A stretch of 64,000 bases of DNA, taken from a virus. Lineage: Duplodnaviria; Caudoviricetes. This document shows, in pieces, positions 7,079-23,131 of this stretch (position 1 is its first letter; each line of letters begins with the position of its first letter). The notes under the pieces are model-generated. The model saw only the letters and a list, made by a program, of their open reading frames with translations, did not search any database and had not been told where the DNA came from. A program made the translations under genes and the position numbers. The DNA lies in the IMG/VR virus record IMGVR_UViG_3300036861_000232, positions 188-64,187 of that record. The stretch is one strand, 5' to 3'.

Positions 7079-7242
7079 GCCCTTCTCCTATTCAGTTCTT
7101 CTTCAAGCCGCTCTGTCAGATCGTGGACCTCGGCTTGCGCCCTGCGCAACCGTCGGCGTAACGTCTCGATCTCGCAATATCGGCAATAGGCTTCTGAGTG
7201 AAGTGGGACACTGTGTTCGCAATAATAATCGTTGTAACTCAT
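7075..7242 (-). CDS. 55-aa Cys/His and coiled-coil protein
   Basis: Manual translation MSYNDYYCEHSV...CRYC...NRRRA; coupled to the int stop. Confidence 0.65.
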   Translation of the reverse strand: MSYNDYYCEHSVPLHSEAYCRYCEIETLRRRLRRAQAEVHDLTERLEEELNRRRA

Positions 7243-8297
7243 GCCTTTCTCCTTACTTCCAGCTCGATACGGTGATGCGCATAAGTCTTTTCCACTTCAT
7301 GCGTCGTTGCACCGATCAGTTTTGCCACGTCCCACAGAGATTTCCCGGCCCACAAATTCCAACTTGCGCAGGTGTGCCGCAAAACGTGAGGCGTATACTC
7401 CGGTGACAGCCCAGCATCCCTGACCACTTTGGCAAAATCTCTGGCTAGGGTTTGAAATTTGATGGGGTGGCCTTGATGGTGGATAACGCAGTATGGTCCT
7501 CGACCAGCATCATTTCGTTGCCATCGTAAAAGGTGAGAAAGTAGCCTTTGGCTTGGGCGTATAGGAGGACGGCGTTTAGAAGTCTCCCGCTCGGCACTCC
7601 CTTTCCGGTAGATGACGCCTCTCTCAAGATCGACATAACCTCCTGTAAGAGCAGCTGTCCACTGTAGTCCAAGGATGGCCCCCCTACGGGTCCCCGTGTA
7701 GAGCCCGATGAGGATGAATCTTGCGACATAGTCCAGTCTCCTTTTCCTGCAAGCCCTAAGCATCTTGGCAATATCCGACCGCTCGAAACATAACAGCCGT
7801 GGCGGCCCTTCCGGCGGCAGTGTCACCTTGGGCATGGCCAGGCCTGTCGGGCATTCACGACCCCAGTAGTTAATAGCAGCGGCCAACGTCTTCAGCTCTC
7901 GTCTGGCGGTGGCAGGCTTGCAGCCATCTTCAACACGCGCTGCCGCATATCCTCTAGAGTATCGGCCAGTGACATCAGCGAGCGTTTTATCTCTCCAATA
8001 TCGGGATAGCGCCGAAATATGGTACCCAATTGTTCCTGCACTAGGCCGTGCAGGTGCGACATCTGTTCCATAGAGTTGTAATACCTCCATTATCGAGACT
8101 TCATTGAGACTACGTTTTGATGTGTCCGGCCTTTGGTTGTGGGCAAGCCATTCCGAGAAGGCTTTTTCAGCTCCTGCGTAATCGTGCTCAAGGCAAGCTG
8201 TGCTGATTTCCTTCGCTCCGCTAAGGATAACCCATGTGGGCTCTCTGCCTTTGCGTTTCCTGAGATAGAGCCTTGCGGGTTTCTTTGGATTCGACAT
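7239..8297 (-). CDS. int: Tyrosine integrase
   Basis: YTGTR (catalytic R), HVLRH (H-x-x-R) and C-terminal KTY catalytic Tyr. Confidence 0.95.
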   Translation of the reverse strand: MSNPKKPARLYLRKRKGREPTWVILSGAKEISTACLEHDYAGAEKAFSEWLAHNQRPDTSKRSLNEVSIMEVLQLYGTDVAPARPSAGTIGYHISALSRYWRDKTLADVTGRYSRGYAAARVEDGCKPATARRELKTLAAAINYWGRECPTGLAMPKVTLPPEGPPRLLCFERSDIAKMLRACRKRRLDYVARFILIGLYTGTRRGAILGLQWTAALTGGYVDLERGVIYRKGSAERETSKRRPPIRPSQRLLSHLLRWQRNDAGRGPYCVIHHQGHPIKFQTLARDFAKVVRDAGLSPEYTPHVLRHTCASWNLWAGKSLWDVAKLIGATTHEVEKTYAHHRIELEVRRKA

Positions 8298-13112: not shown

Positions 13113-13439
13113 TTAGGTGCCCGTTTGCTTGAGCGCTGTGAGAATTACCGCTGCCAGCTTCCGCTGGGTCGGCGTAAGGGTTTCCCAGATGGTCCAGGGA
13201 TTGTCAGGCTCAAGCGGATTGCGAATGAGCAAATCGACCGGTTGGCAGCCCAGCGCATCGGCTAAAGCCTCGAGCATTGGCTGCGTATAAGCCATCTTTC
13301 CCTTCTCGAGTTGAGAAATTGCACCGGCAGTCACCTCGATTCTCTCAGCCAATTGCTCTTGGGTGAGATGACGGTAGAGACGCCATTCCTTGATGTAAGT
13401 CCTTCGTTTTGTTTTGAGATTTGATTTCACTTTTGCCAT
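13113..13439 (-). CDS. CI-like XRE repressor without a peptidase domain
   Basis: HTH LTQEQLAERIEVTAGAISQLEKG; divergent from the cro-like gene. Confidence 0.88.
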   Translation of the reverse strand: MAKVKSNLKTKRRTYIKEWRLYRHLTQEQLAERIEVTAGAISQLEKGKMAYTQPMLEALADALGCQPVDLLIRNPLEPDNPWTIWETLTPTQRKLAAVILTALKQTGT

Positions 13440-14523: not shown

Positions 14524-14859
14524 ATGACAAAACCAAGCATCACAGGTGGCGCTTTTATAGATTCTGATCTTTTTGAGCGGGCCTTAGCCCGCCGCAGTGA
14601 TCCGCAAACCAGCCATGATGCTGCCGATACGGTGACGCCTAGCCTAACGCATCTGGAACAGATGGTTTACGCCGCTCTCAAGAATGCCTGGTTTCATGGC
14701 CTGACGATTGATGAACTGGTTACCGTCACGCATCTGGAAAAAGTAACCGTCTCGCCGCGCTTAAGGCCTCTGTGTGAGAAGGGCTTGGTGCGAGAGGCGC
14801 ATTTCACACGGGCGGGAAAATCCGGCCGGCAGCAGACGGTGTGGCTGGCAAGGCAATGA
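14524..14859 (+). CDS. Winged-HTH phage protein
   Basis: ARRSDPQTSHDAA...LT..EL...VSPRL..L...GLV. Confidence 0.7.
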   Translation: MTKPSITGGAFIDSDLFERALARRSDPQTSHDAADTVTPSLTHLEQMVYAALKNAWFHGLTIDELVTVTHLEKVTVSPRLRPLCEKGLVREAHFTRAGKSGRQQTVWLARQ

Positions 14860-16964
14860 GCGTGAAGATTCTCATTGGCGATGTCAGGGAGAAGCTGAAA
14901 GAATTAGCTGACGAGAGCGTGCATTGCGTGGTGACAAGTCCACCCTATTGGGGCCTAAGGGATTATGGAGTCGGCGGGCAGATTGGTATGGAGCTGACTT
15001 GGCAAGATCACGTTGAAAATATTGCTCAAGTTTTCGATATGGTTAAACGCGTTCTGCGCAAGGATGGCACGCTGTGGCTCAATTATGGGGATAGTTATGC
15101 GGCTGGTGGACGAGGTGGCGGCGCAGACGGCAGCAAGCAACAAACCAATATCGGCGCTCTGCTCGGGCCAAAGAAAGCGCCGTCTGATCTCAAGCCCAAA
15201 GACCTCTGCGGCATCCCCTGGCGTGTCGCCTTCGCCCTGCAGGAGCGGGGCTGGTATCTCAGGCAGGATATCATATGGTGTCTTTCGGGCGGCGCATGGT
15301 TGTATGCGTCGACATCGGCGGGCTATGGCCCCGTCATGCTCAAAGATTTGGTTCGCTTAAACCCAGAAACCGTTGAGCTATGGAACGGTCTGGGGTGGAC
15401 TAAGGTAACGCAATGGACGAAACGACCGGGGCGGGCCGAGGCAACAGAACTGGTTTTGCGGTCAGGCGAGCGCGTGAGCTGCACAGCCAACCATGTGTGG
15501 CCCACACAGCGTGGCAATCTTCGAACGGACGAACTCAAGGCAGGCGATGTTCTCCAGACCACGAAGTTGCCCGATATGGGCGGGCCGGGAGGGTGGATCA
15601 CTGATAATGCCTTCTGGTTTGCGGGATTATATTTGGCGGAAGGTAGCAGGTCCGGTGAGACTATTCAGATCGCGGGCCATATCAAAGAAGTCACCCGAGC
15701 TGAACGCATTAAGCGTCTTGTCGAGCATTACGGCGGCTCGGCGCGGGTTTATAACCATAAGGGCAATTCCCAAAGTATCCATGTTGATAGCGTTGGCCTA
15801 GCTGCTATCGTCAAAACGCTTGTTGCGGGGCGAACGGCAAAGGACAAACATCTCGCCCCAGCCGCTTGGCAATATAGCGACTGGTGTTTGCAGCAATTTG
15901 TGTTCGGATACCTCGAGGGCGATGGCCATCACGATTTAGCGAACGAGAGAGTTCGCCTCGGCTTCTGTCGGAATTATGCGCTTGAGCGAGACCTGCGCTG
16001 TTTGGCGGCTCGGCTCGGCGCAACGCTCACCCTCAATCTGAGTACAGCAAAGAATCAGACTGGCAGCTTTCCGTCTTTCAAGGGTGAATGGCGTTGGGAA
16101 CGTTCCGGCCACCACAATGAAAAGGATAGAGGCGAGATCATCGCCATCCGCCGCTCAAGGGCGCGGCAGTTTTGGGACGTGACGGTTGCCGATGATCCGC
16201 ACCTATTTGCTCTTTCATCCGGCGTTCTAACACACAATTCAAAGCCGAATCCCATGCCCGAGTCAGTCAAGGACCGATGCACCAAGGCGCACGAATATGT
16301 GTTCCTGCTGACGAAGAGCCCAAGATATTATTTCGATGCAGAGGCGATTGCTGAACCATCAATCAAAGAAGACGCGCAGAAGTCATACCATCGTGCGGAC
16401 AACGCCAAATACGATGGCGTCCCGCACGAAAGATGGAAAGATCAATTCGACGGACGAACGTGGGGTGATGCAGGCACCCGCAACAAGCGTTCTGTCTGGG
16501 AAATCGCCACATCACCTTTTCCCGAAGCGCATTTCGCAACTTTCCCCCCAGAGCTGCCAGAGATTTGCATAAAGGCGGGAACGAGCGAGAAGGGGTGTTG
16601 CGCGAAGTGTGGGAAGCCGTGGGTAAGAATTACTGAGCCTGCTGAAAGCACAAGGCGCGGGCCTGTTGCAAGCGGATGGCGCGAGAACTCATTGCGAGCA
16701 GAACTCGGCGCATCGGTTACATGTGGAACAACCAAGACACACACCATTGGATGGCTCCCATCCTGTGAATGCAACATTGATCCGAGAGAGTTTATCCCCT
16801 GCACCGTTCTTGATCCCTTCGCCGGCGCTGGCACAACCGGCCTAGTTGCCGACCGCCTGCAGCGCAATGCCGTCCTCATAGAACTCAATCCCGAATATGC
16901 CGCCATGGCGGAGAAGAGAATTTCCAACGACGCGCCAATGTTCACGGAGGTAGCCGCCGAATGA
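14856..16964 (+). CDS. Amino (m4C/m6A) DNA methyltransferase, beta class, intein-containing
   Basis: N-terminal TSPPY, HFATFP and C-terminal VLDPFAGAGTTG. Confidence 0.92.
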   Translation: MSVKILIGDVREKLKELADESVHCVVTSPPYWGLRDYGVGGQIGMELTWQDHVENIAQVFDMVKRVLRKDGTLWLNYGDSYAAGGRGGGADGSKQQTNIGALLGPKKAPSDLKPKDLCGIPWRVAFALQERGWYLRQDIIWCLSGGAWLYASTSAGYGPVMLKDLVRLNPETVELWNGLGWTKVTQWTKRPGRAEATELVLRSGERVSCTANHVWPTQRGNLRTDELKAGDVLQTTKLPDMGGPGGWITDNAFWFAGLYLAEGSRSGETIQIAGHIKEVTRAERIKRLVEHYGGSARVYNHKGNSQSIHVDSVGLAAIVKTLVAGRTAKDKHLAPAAWQYSDWCLQQFVFGYLEGDGHHDLANERVRLGFCRNYALERDLRCLAARLGATLTLNLSTAKNQTGSFPSFKGEWRWERSGHHNEKDRGEIIAIRRSRARQFWDVTVADDPHLFALSSGVLTHNSKPNPMPESVKDRCTKAHEYVFLLTKSPRYYFDAEAIAEPSIKEDAQKSYHRADNAKYDGVPHERWKDQFDGRTWGDAGTRNKRSVWEIATSPFPEAHFATFPPELPEICIKAGTSEKGCCAKCGKPWVRITEPAESTRRGPVASGWRENSLRAELGASVTCGTTKTHTIGWLPSCECNIDPREFIPCTVLDPFAGAGTTGLVADRLQRNAVLIELNPEYAAMAEKRISNDAPMFTEVAAE
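15279..16238 (+). mobile_element. Intein with LAGLIDADG homing endonuclease (320 aa)
   Basis: Splits DIIW|SKPNPMPES; begins CLSG, ends LTHN before Ser; contains GLYLAEGS and GYLEGDG motifs. Confidence 0.93.
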
Positions 16965-17040
16965 CCTCAGTTCACCAAACCCTGTGGACGAAAGACCTCG
17001 ATGCCAAGCTGATCCGCTTGCGCAAACAGGTGGTGCTCAC

Positions 17041-17505
17041 ATGAGCGCGCCCGCCCTCGCCCAATGTCCTACATGTGCCAGGCTCGAGGAAGAAAACGAA
17101 GAGCTGCGCTTCGAGCTCGACCAGCTGCGCGGACATGACGCCATTCTCCCCTACGTCCAGCATTTCCGCCTCACCCGCACCCAAGCGCGGCTTCTGCACT
17201 ATCTCTGTCAACAGCACAAGGCCGCGCGAATGCAGATCTTGGATGCCGTCTACGGCCACCTGCCTGATGCCGACCAGCCGCAGATTAAAATTCTTGATGT
17301 TCACCTGTGCCATATCAGGAAGAAGCTCACGCCATTCGGCATCACCATCGAAAACATCTGGGGTTACGGCTATCGCCTCAGCCCCGAAAACCGTCAGCGC
17401 ATAACGGCAATCATTCAAGAGGAGAAAACCAATGTCGAGACGAGCCAAGAAGCAGGAAGCCGAGGAAACGGTCGTCCATCTAACCAACGGCCCGCAGCCC
17501 GCTGA
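17041..17505 (+). CDS. Receiver-less OmpR/CtrA-type winged-helix protein
   Basis: PQIKILDVHLCHIRKKL...IENIWGYGYRL resembles the CtrA C-terminal domain. Confidence 0.8.
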   Translation: MSAPALAQCPTCARLEEENEELRFELDQLRGHDAILPYVQHFRLTRTQARLLHYLCQQHKAARMQILDAVYGHLPDADQPQIKILDVHLCHIRKKLTPFGITIENIWGYGYRLSPENRQRITAIIQEEKTNVETSQEAGSRGNGRPSNQRPAAR

Positions 17506-17818
17506 CTATCAACGCTACGTTGAGCGCATCGAGAATGTCCAAGCCGACATCGATGCCATTGACGAGAAGAAGAAGCGCGACAAGGAGCCGTTCCAGCATG
17601 ACATCAAGGCCCTCTACGACGAAGCCGAGGCCGTCGGCATCAACAAGAAGGCCCTGAAGCATGTCGTTGCCAAGCGGCGCAAGCTCTTAAAAGCGAAGCA
17701 AGCTTTCGAGAATCTCGATCTCGTTGACCGCAGCGATGCCGTGTCGATCGAGGCGGCGTTGGGGCCGTTCGCTGAAACTGAACTTGGCCAGGCAGCAGTA
17801 ACCGCTGCAACTCAATAA
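17432..17818 (+). CDS. GapR/DUF2312-like DNA-binding protein
   Basis: YVERIE...DIKALYDEA...G.NKKAL..VV..R. Confidence 0.72.
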   Translation: MSRRAKKQEAEETVVHLTNGPQPADYQRYVERIENVQADIDAIDEKKKRDKEPFQHDIKALYDEAEAVGINKKALKHVVAKRRKLLKAKQAFENLDLVDRSDAVSIEAALGPFAETELGQAAVTAATQ

Positions 17819-17819
17819 C

Positions 17820-19463
17820 ATGACCACGCCAAACCTTCGCCGCTTCACCGATCTGCCCGAGCCGGTGCCGGCAGCGGTAAAGGCATTGGCGGCTGATCAT
17901 CCGGCTGTGGTGGAGGGGCGCACAATCTTCCCTTCGACCGTTGCCGACCCGACTGATGCGCCGCGCTTGCTTGTATCGGGACACAACAATCGAAAGATCG
18001 GGCGTATCGTGGCCAAGGGTCCGTGGGAGGGAATGCCGATCTTCACCCTCACGCTTGAGGAGCGCGCCACCTGCCCAAGCGAGTGTCATATGTATCGCGC
18101 CTGCTATGGCAATGCGATGCCCTTCGCGCGTCGACACCGGCACGGTCCCGAGCTGGAAAAACGGTTGGAGTTGGAAGTCGAGACCCTTTCAATCGAATAC
18201 CCGAAGGGTTTCGTTGTCCGTCTGCATGTGCTCGGCGATTTCTATTCGGTCGAATATGCGGCGCTGTGGTGGCAGCTTCTCGAAAAGCACGCGGCCTTGC
18301 ACATCTACGGCTATACCGCCCGTTCGGTGAGCCAAGGCGAGATCGGCGCGGACATCACCGAAACCATCCACGACATGAATAGTAAGTTCCCGACGCGCTG
18401 CTTTATCCGCTATTCGCGGCCGAAACCGCAGCCGTTCGGCGCCATCGTTCTGGACCGTTCGGACTATGTAAAGCAGGGCGACGACATCATCATCTGTCCC
18501 GCCGAGATCTCTGCCACCGAATGCTGCGCCACCTGTGGCTTGTGCTGGTCGGAGGCGATGCGGAAAAAGACTATCGGCTTCCTCAAGCACGGACTCGGGT
18601 CGAATGAAACCGCCGCCAAGGTCGAGCAGGTCAATGCCCCGGAAGCAAAACCGAAGGCGGGAGACAAATATCGCAAGATCAAAACGCTGATCTTCTCGAA
18701 CGGCAAGCAGGCCCAGCGCGGCGCCGATCCGCCGCAGGTTATGAATATAAACCCGCGCGAATTGTGGGTCGACGAGCGGTATCAGCGGTCAATCTCCCGC
18801 AAGGGAGTCCGGCTCATCAGGAGCATCGTCGAGGGATGGGACTGGCGCAGGTTCAAGCCGCCGATTGTCACCGAGGATGAAAACGGTCGGCTGACGGTGA
18901 TCGACGGCCAGCATACGGCCATTGCCGCTGCTTCGATTGACTGGCTTAAAGAAATTCCAGTGTTGAAAGTGCGATCAGGTGGCGTGGAGCAGAGTGCGGC
19001 GGCCTTCGTCAGCCACAACCGCAATCGCGTCAATCTGACACCGATGCAGATTTACTACGCCGAGATCGCCGCCGGCGATCCTCTGACGCTGAAGGTTAAA
19101 TCCGCCTGTGATAAGGCCGACATCATTGTTCTCAAGCTGCCGCCGCAAAATAGCGATTACGGTCCCGGTGAAACCGTCGCTGTCGGCACGCTGAAATGGC
19201 TGGTGAAAAAACATGGCGATGTCTTTGCGCATCGTGTGTTGGGGATCGTGTCTGAGCTTTGTCTGGCGCCGATCAAGGAATTGCATCTGCGGGCGACCGC
19301 CTATGTTTGTTCGACATCGAAGCTGCCGGACCAGGAGATCATCCGTCGCTGGCGCACGATCAAGGACCCCATCCTTGCCGCTACCGAGGCAAGCGAGGAA
19401 GCCGAACCGCTTTGGCTGGCCTTGGGGCGGTCTCTGGCCAAGGACGAGGCGATGGTCGCATGA
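17820..19463 (+). CDS. GP88-like Cys-rich domain fused to ParB-like (DUF6551-like) domain
   Basis: TCPSEC...ACY, RLHVLGDF, YGYT, CP...CATCGLCW; then VDERYQR...VIDGQH. Confidence 0.72.
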   Translation: MTTPNLRRFTDLPEPVPAAVKALAADHPAVVEGRTIFPSTVADPTDAPRLLVSGHNNRKIGRIVAKGPWEGMPIFTLTLEERATCPSECHMYRACYGNAMPFARRHRHGPELEKRLELEVETLSIEYPKGFVVRLHVLGDFYSVEYAALWWQLLEKHAALHIYGYTARSVSQGEIGADITETIHDMNSKFPTRCFIRYSRPKPQPFGAIVLDRSDYVKQGDDIIICPAEISATECCATCGLCWSEAMRKKTIGFLKHGLGSNETAAKVEQVNAPEAKPKAGDKYRKIKTLIFSNGKQAQRGADPPQVMNINPRELWVDERYQRSISRKGVRLIRSIVEGWDWRRFKPPIVTEDENGRLTVIDGQHTAIAAASIDWLKEIPVLKVRSGGVEQSAAAFVSHNRNRVNLTPMQIYYAEIAAGDPLTLKVKSACDKADIIVLKLPPQNSDYGPGETVAVGTLKWLVKKHGDVFAHRVLGIVSELCLAPIKELHLRATAYVCSTSKLPDQEIIRRWRTIKDPILAATEASEEAEPLWLALGRSLAKDEAMVA

Positions 19464-20185
19464 CGCTTAAGTGCAAAATATGCGGCAAGCCTTACGAGCG
19501 CGGCCTTAAGAGCAAACGCCAGTGCTGCTCGCGATCATGCTGGATTGCCCTGTCCTGGCGCAATGAAGAGACCGCCGCAAAACGCCGAGCAACAATGAGC
19601 ATTGTGCAAAAGGCACGACGCTGCGGCGCCAACCTCAACCGCATGCGGTGGTCCAGGCCGGGCGAGCGGGAAAGGTTGTCGGAATGGAACCGCAAGACAT
19701 GGGCCGATCCTGAGATTCGCAAGAAGCGCAGCGCAGGAATCCGCAGGCAGGCACGGCGTCCTGAATTCCGAAAGAAGATGTCGGATATTCGCAAGCGCGA
19801 CTGGCAGAACCCGGAATACCGCGAAAAGATGATAACCGGCAATCGCCGGGGCCACGGGCGTCCGGAATATCGCAAGCTCTTTTCCGACAATCTTCGCCGC
19901 CGATGGGCCGAGCCGAAGTCGCGTGCCAAATTATTGAAGGCAGTGCGGGAAACTGCGGCGAAGATCAATCGCGGGCGAGGGCTTACTCAGGAACAAGTGG
20001 CGCTTTATTGGGCACTGCAGCAGCTGGCGGCGGGCGGAGTTGTCGACATGCCGTCTCGGCAGCTTTGTCGTGAGGCCGGCATAGGCATGGCGCGCATTGA
20101 GACAGTGATTGCGCGTCTCAAGGCCAAGCGGCTCATCAAGATCGATGGTCCCGACCGTTATCGCATGAAAGAGGAGACGCCATGA
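19460..20185 (+). CDS. Basic protein with Zn finger, NUMOD-like repeats and C-terminal HTH
   Basis: CKICGK...CSRSC followed by repeated W..PE.R.K.S units. Confidence 0.6.
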   Translation: MTLKCKICGKPYERGLKSKRQCCSRSCWIALSWRNEETAAKRRATMSIVQKARRCGANLNRMRWSRPGERERLSEWNRKTWADPEIRKKRSAGIRRQARRPEFRKKMSDIRKRDWQNPEYREKMITGNRRGHGRPEYRKLFSDNLRRRWAEPKSRAKLLKAVRETAAKINRGRGLTQEQVALYWALQQLAAGGVVDMPSRQLCREAGIGMARIETVIARLKAKRLIKIDGPDRYRMKEETP

Positions 20186-20757
20186 AATACGACCGCGAAT
20201 GGGCAATGTATGAAACGCGCTGCAAGCAGCAGGATGGCGAGTTTCAGATAGCCGCCAAGGCGCAACGGCTGTGGTACATGCCCCCTTATATCGCGCCTGT
20301 GGATAATGCGCCTCTCCGTCCTGTGGACAAGCCTGTGGACAACCTTGTGGATAACGTCTCCGAACAGATCATTGAGGAGCCGCCACCAGCCCCGCCACCC
20401 AAGCCGAAGCCCGTCCTGTTCGACAAGAACCGCATTCCGCTTTCGCGCGGACAGATCGTCGTCAAGACCGTCTCGATGGTGAGCGGGATACCGGTCAAGT
20501 TCATCACCGGCCCGCATCGTCAACGCCATCTCATGCCGGCGCGGCGCGCCGCTGTCTGGCTTCTGGTGAAGGAAGTCCGCTTGAGCTATCCCGCCACCGG
20601 TCGGGTCCTCGGCAACCGTGATCACTCGACCATCATCCATGCCGTCAGAAAATGCGGCGAGGCCGAGCATGCACTTATCGCCCAGGCCAAGGCGCTGCTT
20701 GAAGAAGCGGGCCATCTTGCCAAATGGGCGGCATGGGACGCAGTGGTGGAGGGATAG
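20182..20757 (+). CDS. DnaA domain IV (C-terminal HTH)-like protein
   Basis: R......R...WL......SYP..GR.LG.RDHSTIIHAVRK, the DnaA signature. Confidence 0.85.
   Translation: MKYDREWAMYETRCKQQDGEFQIAAKAQRLWYMPPYIAPVDNAPLRPVDKPVDNLVDNVSEQIIEEPPPAPPPKPKPVLFDKNRIPLSRGQIVVKTVSMVSGIPVKFITGPHRQRHLMPARRAAVWLLVKEVRLSYPATGRVLGNRDHSTIIHAVRKCGEAEHALIAQAKALLEEAGHLAKWAAWDAVVEG
20298..20354. promoter_or_regulatory. Array of four co-oriented DnaA boxes
   Basis: TGTGGATAA at 20298 and 20346; TGTGGACAA at 20322 and 20334. Confidence 0.75.
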
Positions 20758-20783
20758 CGGGACATCGAATGAGGCTTGAGGCT

Positions 20784-21671
20784 ATGAGCAAATTCTATCG
20801 CATGGACCCATGGGCTTGGGACGATGGCACCACTGGCCTCTCTCTGGAGCAGGAAGCCGCATATTTGAGAATAGTTAATGCTACCAACAAAAGTGACGAG
20901 CCAATTATGGCTAATCGCTTCGCCCTTGCCGGCATGTTTCGCTGCAACACTGAAAAGGCCATGCGGCTGTTGCGAGACCTAGAGGCTGCTGGAAAAGTGC
21001 AACTCGTCGAAGGCCGCATCCATAACAAACGAGCCGACCAAGAGATCGAATATCGGCGTACCCTATCGGCCACTCGCGCCCAAGCGGCGAGCAACCGGAA
21101 ACCAACCGACACCGAACCCGCACCGAACCCATCAGCAACCGGTGAGCAACCGACCGCCAACCCACCAGCAACCGACGACGCTAAGCCATTGCAATCACTC
21201 AATGGGCAGGCAGCAATTCCTCGTTTAATAGAAGAGAATAGAATAGAAGAAGAAAAGAAGAAAAACAAAAAAGGCAACACGGCGCGTGGAACGCGCCTGC
21301 CTGATGATTGGTGGCCTCAAGACACCGATTGGCAATGGGCAAAAGACACGTTTCGTCTCGATGACAACCAGCTTCGCGAATTGACAGCCGACTTTAAGGA
21401 TTACTGGCCGACAGTGCCGGGGGCACGCGGTCGCAAACTTGATTGGTTTCGCACATGGCGTTGCCGCGTGCGTGACCGATTCGGAATAAACGGAAGGAGT
21501 AACCGCAATGGACAAGCTAGGCGACAACCTCCCCAAAATACCATCGCCGAGGGATTCGCAGAGATCAACGCTGCCCTCGATCAGCGGCTCGCCGACGAGC
21601 AAGGTCAGACAGGCGACAGCCCTGGCGGAGAAATTGCTGAGCTCGTACCCCGACTACGGCAAGGCTCCTAA
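20784..21671 (+). CDS. Replication initiator / replisome organiser (DUF1376/YdaU-like)
   Basis: T.GLSLEQ.AAY N-terminus; C-terminal GTRLPDDW...F.DYW...DW..TW. Confidence 0.8.
   Translation: MSKFYRMDPWAWDDGTTGLSLEQEAAYLRIVNATNKSDEPIMANRFALAGMFRCNTEKAMRLLRDLEAAGKVQLVEGRIHNKRADQEIEYRRTLSATRAQAASNRKPTDTEPAPNPSATGEQPTANPPATDDAKPLQSLNGQAAIPRLIEENRIEEEKKKNKKGNTARGTRLPDDWWPQDTDWQWAKDTFRLDDNQLRELTADFKDYWPTVPGARGRKLDWFRTWRCRVRDRFGINGRSNRNGQARRQPPQNTIAEGFAEINAALDQRLADEQGQTGDSPGGEIAELVPRLRQGS
21090..21177 (+). repeat. Eight tandem degenerate 11-bp iterons (candidate phage origin)
   Basis: agcaaccggaa/accaaccgaca/ccgaacccgca/ccgaacccatc/agcaaccggtg/agcaaccgacc/gccaacccacc/agcaaccgacg, followed by an A-rich tract. 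Confidence 0.7.
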
Positions 21672-22089
21672 GCCCTATCTCCTATCGATTGCCGAGATTT
21701 TAGGCCAGCTTTCTGAGGATGTTGTGGTCGCCGTGCTTGACCTTAAAACCGGAGTGCGAGCGCGATGTTCCTATCTCCCGACGGTAGCCGATATCGTCAA
21801 ATGCGCTGAGGAATATATCGTCCATCGTGATCGATTCAGGTCCGCTCCACGCGGAGGCATCCACAAGCTGCTTCCGCGCGCCACCGACCGTGAGCCAACG
21901 GAAGCGGAAAAGCAGCGGGCACGCGAAAATTGGGCCAAGGTCATGGCCGAATGGGCCAAACTCAAAGCCAATTGGGCGATGCACGACAGCAAAAAACCAT
22001 CGCCCATGATGGTCCCGGAAGGGCTAAGCAATGAAGAGGCGGCTAAATCAACGCCACGGTCCGGTGAAACCAAGCTAGGAACTGATTGA
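21508..22089 (+). CDS. Putative helicase loader / replication partner
   Basis: Overlaps the initiator 3' end; LLSSYP...CSYLPTVADI motif. Confidence 0.55.
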   Translation: MDKLGDNLPKIPSPRDSQRSTLPSISGSPTSKVRQATALAEKLLSSYPDYGKAPKPYLLSIAEILGQLSEDVVVAVLDLKTGVRARCSYLPTVADIVKCAEEYIVHRDRFRSAPRGGIHKLLPRATDREPTEAEKQRARENWAKVMAEWAKLKANWAMHDSKKPSPMMVPEGLSNEEAAKSTPRSGETKLGTD

Positions 22090-22262
22090 CGTGGTCCGCG
22101 AGGCGCGATGAAAGAGCTACCGCGGCGTCTCGCAGGACCAAGCGGTTTCAATGACGGAGAGAGCCTATGTGTCAGCGCAAAACATCGCCGGTCAACCTCC
22201 GAACACTGGATGATGATGGCTGGATACCACACGTTTCGAGACAAGCCGAAAGGAGCAGAAAG

Positions 22263-22541
22263 ATGAGTAATTTCAAGGTGGGGCAGAAGGTTGTGTGCGT
22301 GAAAAAGGCTTTGTGGAGTGGAAGGCGTAGCGGAGTTCCTTGCAAAGGCCCGACACTGCGGGAGGTCTGTACGGTTACCGGAGTCAAAGTATTTACAATA
22401 TTGCTGGCCGAGTATCCGGTCGATAGCGAGAGGTTCGCCGGTTATGACAAGCGCTCTTTCCGACCAATCGTTAACCAAGAGTGTGGCATGGAAATGCTGC
22501 GGGAGCTTTTGCAGCCGAAAGAAGAAAAGGTTTTGAGCTGA
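22263..22541 (+). CDS. Hypothetical protein
   Basis: FKVGQKVVCV...FRP; AAGGAG RBS. Confidence 0.65.
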   Translation: MSNFKVGQKVVCVKKALWSGRRSGVPCKGPTLREVCTVTGVKVFTILLAEYPVDSERFAGYDKRSFRPIVNQECGMEMLRELLQPKEEKVLS

Positions 22542-22543
22542 GG

Positions 22544-23131
22544 GTGACGAAGGGGCCGCGAGACATATCGGCTCGCCAGCAGAGGGTTCGACATGAAGGA
22601 CCGACGGTTTTTCTGCTTGTCAAACGCCGCGATTTGCTCGGTGGCGAGATCAAGATCGGCACCGGCGGCGTGCTCAGGCTTACCGTGTCGGAGGCCGTGG
22701 CCGCGGATGCACTTACCTATTACCACCATCTGGGCCTGCTTTCGGATTCACAGTTCTGTGCCGGGTCGGAATACGGTGATCTGCACTGGAAGCTCTTCGG
22801 CAAGGACTTTGCCCAGCGCGGCGTGTTTGCCAAGATCGTCCATGATGAGGCCACTGAGGATGAGGCTCCTGTGCATACGCGCGAAGCACCGATCCCGGTC
22901 AAGTGCCAGACCTATTGCGGTCAGTATTGCGACTGCCCGGCAAAGAACTGGATGGACGGCTTTGCCAGGTTCGGTGAGGCCGACCGGCATCTGCAGCGGT
23001 TTGCCCGTAACAAGGACAGGATCGTCATGCGCAAGGTGACGATCGACAAGGCATGGCCGGAGACCCAAGGCGAAGTCGCCCGCCTGATCTCCGCGCTCGA
23101 GGTTTTGAGGCGATATTGGAAGATGGGGTAA
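22544..23131 (+). CDS. Possible late-gene regulator (Q position)
   Basis: D.L..Y...G.L...Q..AG..Y...W pattern; lies after the replication genes. Confidence 0.4.
   Translation: MTKGPRDISARQQRVRHEGPTVFLLVKRRDLLGGEIKIGTGGVLRLTVSEAVAADALTYYHHLGLLSDSQFCAGSEYGDLHWKLFGKDFAQRGVFAKIVHDEATEDEAPVHTREAPIPVKCQTYCGQYCDCPAKNWMDGFARFGEADRHLQRFARNKDRIVMRKVTIDKAWPETQGEVARLISALEVLRRYWKMG

Follow-up and report, generated by a model that had tools for sequence, protein, structure and literature searches.

The 64,000-nucleotide window analysed here, which is the 64,187-bp virus record IMGVR_UViG_3300036861_000232 minus its first 187 bases, carries a gene for a small protein built on DnaA domain IV only (mini-DnaA), and inside the coding sequence of this gene lies an array of four DnaA boxes. 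The mini-DnaA open reading frame (ORF), which includes GNRDHSTIIHAVRK and has the linker APVDNAPLRPVDKPVDNLVDNV, belongs to a long early block of genes on the same (+) strand, and its ATG overlaps the stop codon of the upstream ORF in the sequence ATGA (20182-20185). It is followed by a gene of the DUF1376 family, within which a candidate replication origin has been identified. The features of the locus, together with the other genes mentioned below, are collected in Table 1. An earlier sequence-only reading of this DNA had reported a gene with four boxes in its own coding sequence, two perfect and two with one mismatch at distances of 24, 12 and 12 bp, and a product with the DnaA helix-turn-helix (HTH) signature RDHSTIIHA and no AAA+ domain; the first point was confirmed by the ORF list and the box positions, the second by the motif scan and the third by Pfam and NCBIfam.

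Table 1. Features of the mini-DnaA locus and other genes of the window (positions refer to the 64,000-nucleotide window)
Feature	Position	Strand	Evidence
Integrase gene	7239-8297	-	PHROG match
Cro/CI-type HTH gene	13113-13439	-	Family scan
DNA methylase gene	14841-16964	+	Pfam N6_N4_Mtase, E 9.7e-36, in three stretches
OmpR-type winged helix gene	16984-17505	+	Family scan
GapR-like DNA-binding gene	17432-17818	+	Pfam, E 5.2e-6
DUF7227/GP88 + ParB-like DUF6551 fusion, 547 aa	17820-19463	+	Pfam
Upstream ORF without family	19463-20185	+	ORF list
mini-DnaA gene (DnaA domain IV only, 191 aa)	20182-20757	+	ORF list, Pfam, AlphaFold2, Foldseek
Four co-oriented DnaA boxes (TGTGGATAA on +, TTATCCACA on -)	20298-20354	+	Motif scan
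DnaA box 1, perfect, TGTGGATAA	20298-20306	+	
DnaA box 2, one mismatch, TGTGGACAA	20322-20330	+	
DnaA box 3, one mismatch, TGTGGACAA	20334-20342	+	
DnaA box 4, perfect, TGTGGATAA	20346-20354	+	
Bac_DnaA_C coding part (residues 93-157, including RDHSTIIHA)	20458-20652	+	Pfam
DUF1376 (YdaU-like) gene	20784-21671	+	Pfam, E 1.7e-12, domain residues 4-89; PHROG 'primosomal protein'
Candidate iterons, four exact AGCAACCG repeats	21090-21174 (starts 21090, 21134, 21145, 21167)	+	Repeat scan
AT-rich stretch, candidate unwinding element	21212-21271	+	GC 26.7%, joint lowest 60-nt window of the phage

By its sequence and its structural model, mini-DnaA is a true DnaA domain IV, with the predicted fold and contact residues of a DnaA-box reader. 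Bac_DnaA_C (PF08299) is the only Pfam family in the protein (E 7.8e-14; 51.9 bits versus a cut-off of 31.5), and its match covers profile positions 4-68 of 69. The NCBIfam DnaA models are matched in their C-terminal 68-70 positions only, far under cut-off; the model of the chromosomal initiator DnaA, TIGR00362, gives 46.1 bits at a cut-off of 343.9, over model positions 351-418 of 437. Because the full-length DnaA models match with their C-terminal part only, mini-DnaA is considered to be devoid of the AAA+ module, and Pfam gave no match to an AAA+ or Bac_DnaA domain III in it. A full chromosomal initiator DnaA is thereby ruled out, given the length of 191 amino acids (aa), the missing AAA+ domain III and the TIGR00362 score below cut-off. 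None of the PHROG families matches mini-DnaA.

The AlphaFold2 model of mini-DnaA, with a mean predicted local distance difference test (pLDDT) of 88.4, is composed of four consecutive sections; (i) a helix at residues 5-27, (ii) a coil linker at residues 28-81 (block pLDDT 62-86), (iii) domain IV at residues 89-156 and (iv) two C-terminal helices within residues 160-190. The top Foldseek matches of the model, 1j1v_A (TMt, the target TM-score, 0.84) and 3pvp_A (TMt 0.82), both at a root-mean-square deviation of ~2 A, are the DNA-binding domains of DnaA from E. coli and M. tuberculosis, respectively, solved with DNA. In the 1J1V alignment R113 takes the place of R399, P137 of P423, D147 of D433, H148 of H434, S149 of T435, H153 of H439, and R156/K157 of R442/K443, so that the single change among the recognition-helix residues is a conservative Thr to Ser at T435. 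The roles of P423, D433, H434 and H439 as box-contact residues were reportedly established by Fujikawa in 2003. Those of R399 (the minor-groove arginine), T435, R442 and K443 in box reading are described in PMC9638019. Mini-DnaA thus resembles domain IV on its box (1J1V, 3PVP) in the fold, the Pfam match, the basic-loop arginine and the recognition-helix residues, and the array in its gene carries the canonical 9-mer. The differences from cellular DnaA relate to the stand-alone form, without domain I, AAA+ domain III and ATP switch, to the Ser in place of T435, and to the addition of a short N-terminal helix and two C-terminal helices to domain IV. A predicted complex of mini-DnaA with the DUF1376 protein (score 0.00, mark 0.32) has been used neither for nor against binding.

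The boxes are read in frame as P-V-D-N, P-V-D-K, P-V-D-N and L-V-D-N for boxes 1-4, respectively (residues 39-58), which in the model places the array in the unstructured linker, in the coil-coding part where the peptide is least constrained. The window contains only two perfect TGTGGATAA boxes, against 0.17 expected, and both are in the mini-DnaA gene, 48 bp apart; two or more were found in 2 of 100 shuffles. With up to one mismatch allowed, 14 boxes are present versus 7.17 expected, four of them inside the 57 bp of the array. The flanks of the array have a GC content of 55-65%, and no AT-rich element lies beside the boxes. Boxes 2-4 belong to a 12-bp tandem repeat of 3.0 copies (Tandem Repeats Finder, TRF), outside of which box 1 is located.

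The codons of the linker point, with moderate strength, to a constraint on the boxes at the DNA level. In the register of the array a box requires that the codon before Val end in T, that Val be GTG and that Asp be GAT (perfect box) or GAC (one mismatch). CCT or CTT followed by GTG is used in all four units, which puts minority codons at all eight deciding synonymous sites; in the 48 other phage ORFs CCT makes up 12.8% of the Pro codons, CTT 15.9% of the Leu codons and GTG 28.2% of the Val codons. The probability of the eight choices is 2.1e-6 if they are independent, and 1.3e-3 if box 1 and the tandem block are taken as one event each. Outside residues 34-51 the gene has 13 Pro codons, none of them CCT. 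The other x-V-D-[NK] sites of the phage, seven in number, all lack GTG, and only one of them comes within a single mismatch of a box. When the mini-DnaA gene was recoded synonymously 100000 times, four or more boxes with no more than one mismatch arose in 508 of the recodings, and two or more perfect boxes in 204.

The closest homologue, P0002 (190 aa, 41-42% identity over the full length), is a singleton protein from a public-run assembly, and the comparison with it is made at the protein level; its DNA was not found in viral_contigs or in metagenome_contigs (protein, two-sequence alignment). At the positions aligned to boxes 1, 2 and 4 P0002 reads P-V-E-N, T-V-D-N and T-V-D-N, and the intervening residues differ. 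The residue before Val changes from P or L to T, and for all three amino acids there are codons with T in the third position, a pattern that a DNA constraint would predict. The contigs of one soil-metagenome DNA run, which contains the stretch and may be where it came from, showed no variants over the four boxes, which is uninformative on conservation.

The second element of the locus lies in the neighbouring gene. An origin about 750 bp downstream of the array had been proposed in the sequence-only reading, and it is now supported, as a candidate, by phased repeats and an AT-rich block in the DUF1376 gene. This gene holds four of the seven window copies of AGCAACCG, at distances of 44, 11 and 22 bp, i.e. 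multiples of 11 bp. As they occur in three different reading frames and inside a linker insert absent from homologues, they are regarded as DNA elements and not as a peptide repeat. The AT-rich stretch begins 38 bp after the last repeat and is written in the rare codons TTA, ATA (twice) and AGA, which in the phage account for 4.3% of Leu, 9.5% of Ile and 8.7% of Arg, respectively; it encodes IEENRIEE, a peptide recurring in DUF1376 homologues. The origin of phage lambda lies inside gene O (PMC5043065), and since the repeats and the AT-rich block have the layout of ori-lambda, an origin inside the DUF1376 gene is a well-supported candidate at the level of sequence. The similarity to ori-lambda holds for the AGCAACCG repeats with the 26.7% GC block close beside them, and in general for cis repeats in the linker-coding part of a replication gene, here two adjacent genes. 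In contrast, the mini-DnaA array has its AT-rich element ~860 bp away in the neighbouring gene. DnaA boxes, iterons and AT-rich region are all co-linear and spread over ~975 bp (20298-21271) and two genes.

The DUF1376 gene product probably initiates or organises phage replication. The 36 ORFs scanned include no recognised helicase, primase, polymerase or loader family, and for this reason the phage probably depends on host replication proteins. In a scan of 13-26 kb for sigma-70 promoters and terminators, the counts matched those of shuffled sequence and none lay near the array. The C-terminal domain of the DUF1376 protein (RLPDDW...DW..TFRNR) is also present behind HTH_36 N-termini in P0177, P0179 and P0184, a sequence pattern which suggests modular initiators with swappable origin-binding heads. 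The DUF1376 ORF extends 164 nt into the next ORF (21508-22089, no family; overlap 21508-21671), and its homologues end earlier.

DnaA boxes written into coding sequence are found in other phages as well. At least 119 viral loci (L149-L267) contain two DnaA boxes exactly 12 bp apart, and in 22 of the 119 listed loci both boxes of the pair are read in the V-D-[NK] register, as here, within an open frame of 110 aa or more. A Pfam scan took 20 of these 22 (L157 and L216 were left out) and identified Phage_rep_O in L167 and HTH_36 in L196 and L259, all three above cut-off, as well as HTH family matches below cut-off in L174 and L158. In these five initiator-like loci the boxes come directly after the N-terminal DNA-binding domain; 13 of the remaining loci are without family and two encode unrelated proteins (a glycosyltransferase and a tail protein). 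As far as sequences tell, phages repeatedly place host-type DnaA boxes in the linker-coding parts of their replication genes. The phage described here shares with the Rep_O and HTH_36 initiators the in-frame boxes, and differs from them in that its host-type boxes lie in the gene for a predicted DnaA-box reader, an arrangement which in the data surveyed is unique to this phage and perhaps the source of P0002. Most of the listed box-pair loci fall in short open frames, i.e. they are intergenic, and where further boxes lie around the pairs, the commonest distances between neighbours are 11 bp (56 pairs) and 12 bp (151 pairs, the seeded ones included).

From the array and its linker position, the fold and contact residues of mini-DnaA and the neighbouring origin-like element, all of which are observed, we infer which protein binds the array and with what effect. 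The favoured reading, to which we assign a probability of roughly 0.4, is that host DnaA binds the array, which would be the DnaA-box pad of an origin region, and that the phage protein competes for it. The array would be a high-affinity DnaA-box element, kept at the DNA level inside the mini-DnaA linker-coding sequence, and would form part of a replication-control region of the phage, together with the iterons and the unwinding element in the linker-coding part of the next gene. Host DnaA bound to the array would help to bring the host helicase to the DUF1376-gene origin, as in iteron plasmids; recruitment of the host enzyme is proposed because no phage helicase, loader or primase has been recognised. 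Mini-DnaA would read the same box and would be unable to oligomerise or load helicase, and would therefore compete for the array and probably for host boxes too. The competition would provide a built-in feedback on initiation and on transcription through the mini-DnaA gene. On a further reading, which is conceivable and unlikely, stand-alone DnaA domain-IV proteins would be phage tools that take the place of host DnaA on DnaA boxes, and in this phage the tool would have acquired a private box array inside its own gene, beside the origin. One set of boxes could then be exchanged between host DnaA (origin on) and an ATPase-less decoy (origin off, host oriC blocked). If this is true, the locus represents a minimal self-contained initiation switch, with a DnaA fragment and its sites written in a single gene. 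The earlier interpretation is partly supported: its cis array paired with a potential trans reader stands at the sequence level as regards fold and contact residues, and so does its downstream origin as a candidate.

The closest parallels to this arrangement are the iteron plasmids. P1, F, RK2, pSC101 and R6K use host DnaA sites beside the iterons of their Rep proteins, and in the P1 plasmid the DnaA sites tolerate relocation (both from the excerpts of PMC5043065); in the alphaproteobacterial Paracoccus plasmid pMOS7 the box TTATCCACA is found 2 bp from the iterons (PMC3832669). The phage likewise combines DnaA boxes, element-specific iterons and an AT-rich region. However, its boxes are inside coding sequence, ~740 bp from the iterons, and accompanied by a truncated DnaA of its own.

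Several results weigh against the favoured reading. The array is separated from the iterons by ~740 bp and from the AT-rich block by ~860 bp, which puts it farther away than the DnaA sites in the plasmid origins named above, and given its own flanks of 55-65% GC it is not a self-contained origin. The box consensus of the host may differ from the one used. The p value of the recoding test is only ~0.005, and since units 2-4 form a 12-bp tandem repeat, slippage could have copied the codons. All four boxes share one reading frame, although this frame is nearly forced, as one alternative reads a TAA stop and another places Trp-Ile in the linker. The survey of DnaA-IV-only loci also counts against the reading, in contrast to the in-frame box pairs found in initiator genes of other phages. 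Stand-alone DnaA domain-IV proteins are a large, mostly viral family, common in phages, with 4013 relatives of mini-DnaA at E <=0.001 (full-length cellular DnaA proteins included) and nearest Atlas clusters that are 77-80% viral. Seventy loci encoding DnaA domain IV only were examined and the ORF was found in 68; no perfect box occurs in the gene or within 300 bp in any of the other 68, there are never more than two one-mismatch boxes, these at least 327 bp apart, and three boxes within 120 bp occur in 0 of 67 viral DnaA-IV loci. In five complete genomes of phages with such a protein, boxes are no commoner than a reversed control word. Conversely, none of the 119 listed box-pair loci has a DnaA-IV or DUF1376 protein detectable with the queries used. 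The pairing of boxes and reader is on this account a rare variant.

One complete 115-kb phage with a DnaA-IV-only gene has three boxes (one perfect) in 78 bp at G406:C1:90375-90452, ~11 kb from the gene. A DUF1376 protein as a general partner of DnaA-IV genes was rejected, as it was present in 4 of 32 records (1 above cut-off) and, by phmmer, in 2 of 70 loci.

The main rival is pure autoregulation, which we consider rather unlikely, albeit less so than any other alternative. Here the array would serve as an operator only, at which mini-DnaA, with or without host DnaA, blocks RNA polymerase, and the boxes would not contribute to origin firing; the roadblock would limit the levels of mini-DnaA and of the downstream DUF1376 gene. 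That one gene contains both the site and a predicted reader for it fits such a circuit, as does the absence of an AT-rich flank. Moreover, as the gene belongs to an extended early operon on one strand and shares ATGA with the upstream ORF, everything downstream would be affected by a roadblock. In the excerpts of PMC5835720, cellular dnaA is controlled through DnaA boxes and derepressed by extra boxes. The phage likewise links a box cluster to the gene of a box-binding protein, with a box make-up like that of datA, whereas its boxes are inside the coding sequence and not in a promoter or an intergenic region, and the E. coli dnaA and datA systems depend on an ATP/ADP switch absent from mini-DnaA. 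Self-binding is not a trait of the family, given that the other 68 loci lack boxes, and four tandem boxes exceed the needs of a simple operator. The in-frame arrays of other phages sit in initiator genes without a DnaA-like reader, which weakens the operator and indicates host DnaA and replication.

Three further explanations are all quite improbable, to a similar degree. In the first, mini-DnaA would itself be the origin-binding initiator of the phage and the boxes its iterons, in the style of lambda gene O, with host DnaA not required. Four direct repeats of the predicted site in the linker-coding part of its own gene reproduce the lambda O layout (PMC5043065), the gene is in a replication module, and standalone Bac_DnaA_C proteins of 145-187 aa occur in mostly viral clusters. 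On the other hand, no AT-rich element adjoins the boxes, the next gene contains a better origin candidate with iterons of its own, the relatives have no boxes, and mini-DnaA lacks any domain known to open DNA or recruit helicase.

According to the second, mini-DnaA would be an activator similar to GafA or GafY, and the array the upstream site through which it switches on phage genes further downstream. In alphaproteobacteria, gene transfer agent genes are activated by GafY and by the N-terminal part of GafA (PMC9638019 and PMC11150451), and the phage has alphaproteobacterial traits (a GapR-like gene and a Pararhizobium homologue in the DUF1376 family). Compared by description, these proteins are likewise small DnaA-like DNA-binding modules employed outside chromosome initiation in a phage-like setting. 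However, GafA is described in PMC9638019 as poorly similar to DnaA in primary sequence, whereas mini-DnaA passes the Pfam cut-off with the full signature. GafA also acts together with a sigma-like partner and the omega subunit of RNA polymerase, whereas Pfam and NCBIfam revealed no GafZ-like, sigma-like or DUF6456 partner in the neighbouring ORFs. A scan of sigma-70 type only gave no promoter-like site downstream of the array on the + strand.

In the third, the boxes would have no function at the DNA level, and a P-V-D-N peptide repeat generated by slippage would spell DnaA boxes incidentally. The single frame of all units and the tandem repeat formed by three of them are expected from slippage; at least one box with up to one mismatch appears in 64% of recodings of the peptide alone, and the two in-frame pairs in unrelated genes (the glycosyltransferase and the tail protein, 2 of 22) mean that chance pairs do occur. 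Against this, the only two perfect boxes of the genome are found in the one gene whose product is a predicted box reader, minority codons stand at all eight deciding sites, box 1 is not in the tandem repeat, and V-D-N is kept at three aligned positions of P0002 in a linker which has otherwise diverged.

The weakest of the three roles named in the sequence-only reading, and a most improbable one, is a sink like datA, where a box cluster with an IHF site promotes DnaA-ATP hydrolysis; it would titrate or inactivate host DnaA on replicating phage DNA and stop host initiation: two consensus and two one-mismatch boxes do resemble datA with its two consensus and four 1-misfit boxes (excerpts of PMC5835720), and the array copy number rises with phage replication, but four sites per genome are few, and a phage already making a competitor protein gains little from a sink.

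The individual components of the locus are known separately, namely DnaA domain IV and its box, origins inside initiator genes, DnaA sites of mobile-element origins, and DnaA boxes controlling dnaA. In the literature covered, which leaves most subscription journals and supplements outside, no phage protein consisting of domain IV alone was found described whose gene contains DnaA boxes, and no functional study of viral stand-alone DnaA domain-IV proteins was found. The phage offers a ready handle on the function of this family, as the predicted site is in the gene itself and the candidate origin is adjacent, all within a single 2.7-kb fragment. It further supports the view that linker-coding sequence is used by phages to carry cis-acting replication signals, a point of relevance when phage genomes are annotated gene by gene or recoded synonymously.

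The virus record is classed in IMG/VR as having direct terminal repeats and is rated 100% complete by CheckV. A 64,089-base contig from one soil-metagenome run spans the stretch, and its two ends overlap at window positions 21215-21243; as the genome assembles as a circle, the record's direct terminal repeat may simply be an overlap in the assembly that reflects this circularity. The phage is temperate, since an integrase and a Cro/CI-type HTH gene are present. No close cultured relative was found in the phage collection, by tblastn, blastn or the terminase search; tblastn against the phage collection gave two weak domain-IV matches and nothing else, and blastn with window 19000-23000 gave no match. 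As the terminase has distant matches only, no host can be assigned. The GapR-like gene and the DUF1376-family homologue from Pararhizobium, the sole one with an organism name, are sequence hints of an alphaproteobacterial host. No tRNA genes were found. The plasmid collection yielded two weak matches and no tie to the Rhodobacterales DnaA-like replicases at E <=1e-3. Among 401 alphaproteobacterial genomes (class members around G001, a Bradyrhizobium genome) no close relative was found; matches at E <=1e-7 were obtained in 17 of them, of which 15 fall in open frames of 365-596 aa, as long as full-length DnaA, and the other two in short frames of 139 and 185 aa.

Upstream of the mini-DnaA gene, the same-strand block comprises the genes given in Table 1. 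The ORF that overlaps the mini-DnaA start codon has no Pfam or NCBIfam match; it shows a Cys-rich N-terminus, at least five W..PE[YFI]R.K-like repeats and a C-terminus which by eye is winged-helix-like. The DNA methylase gene is split by an intein-like insert with Intein_splicing and LAGLIDADG_3 matches, below or near cut-off, at residues ~188-466.

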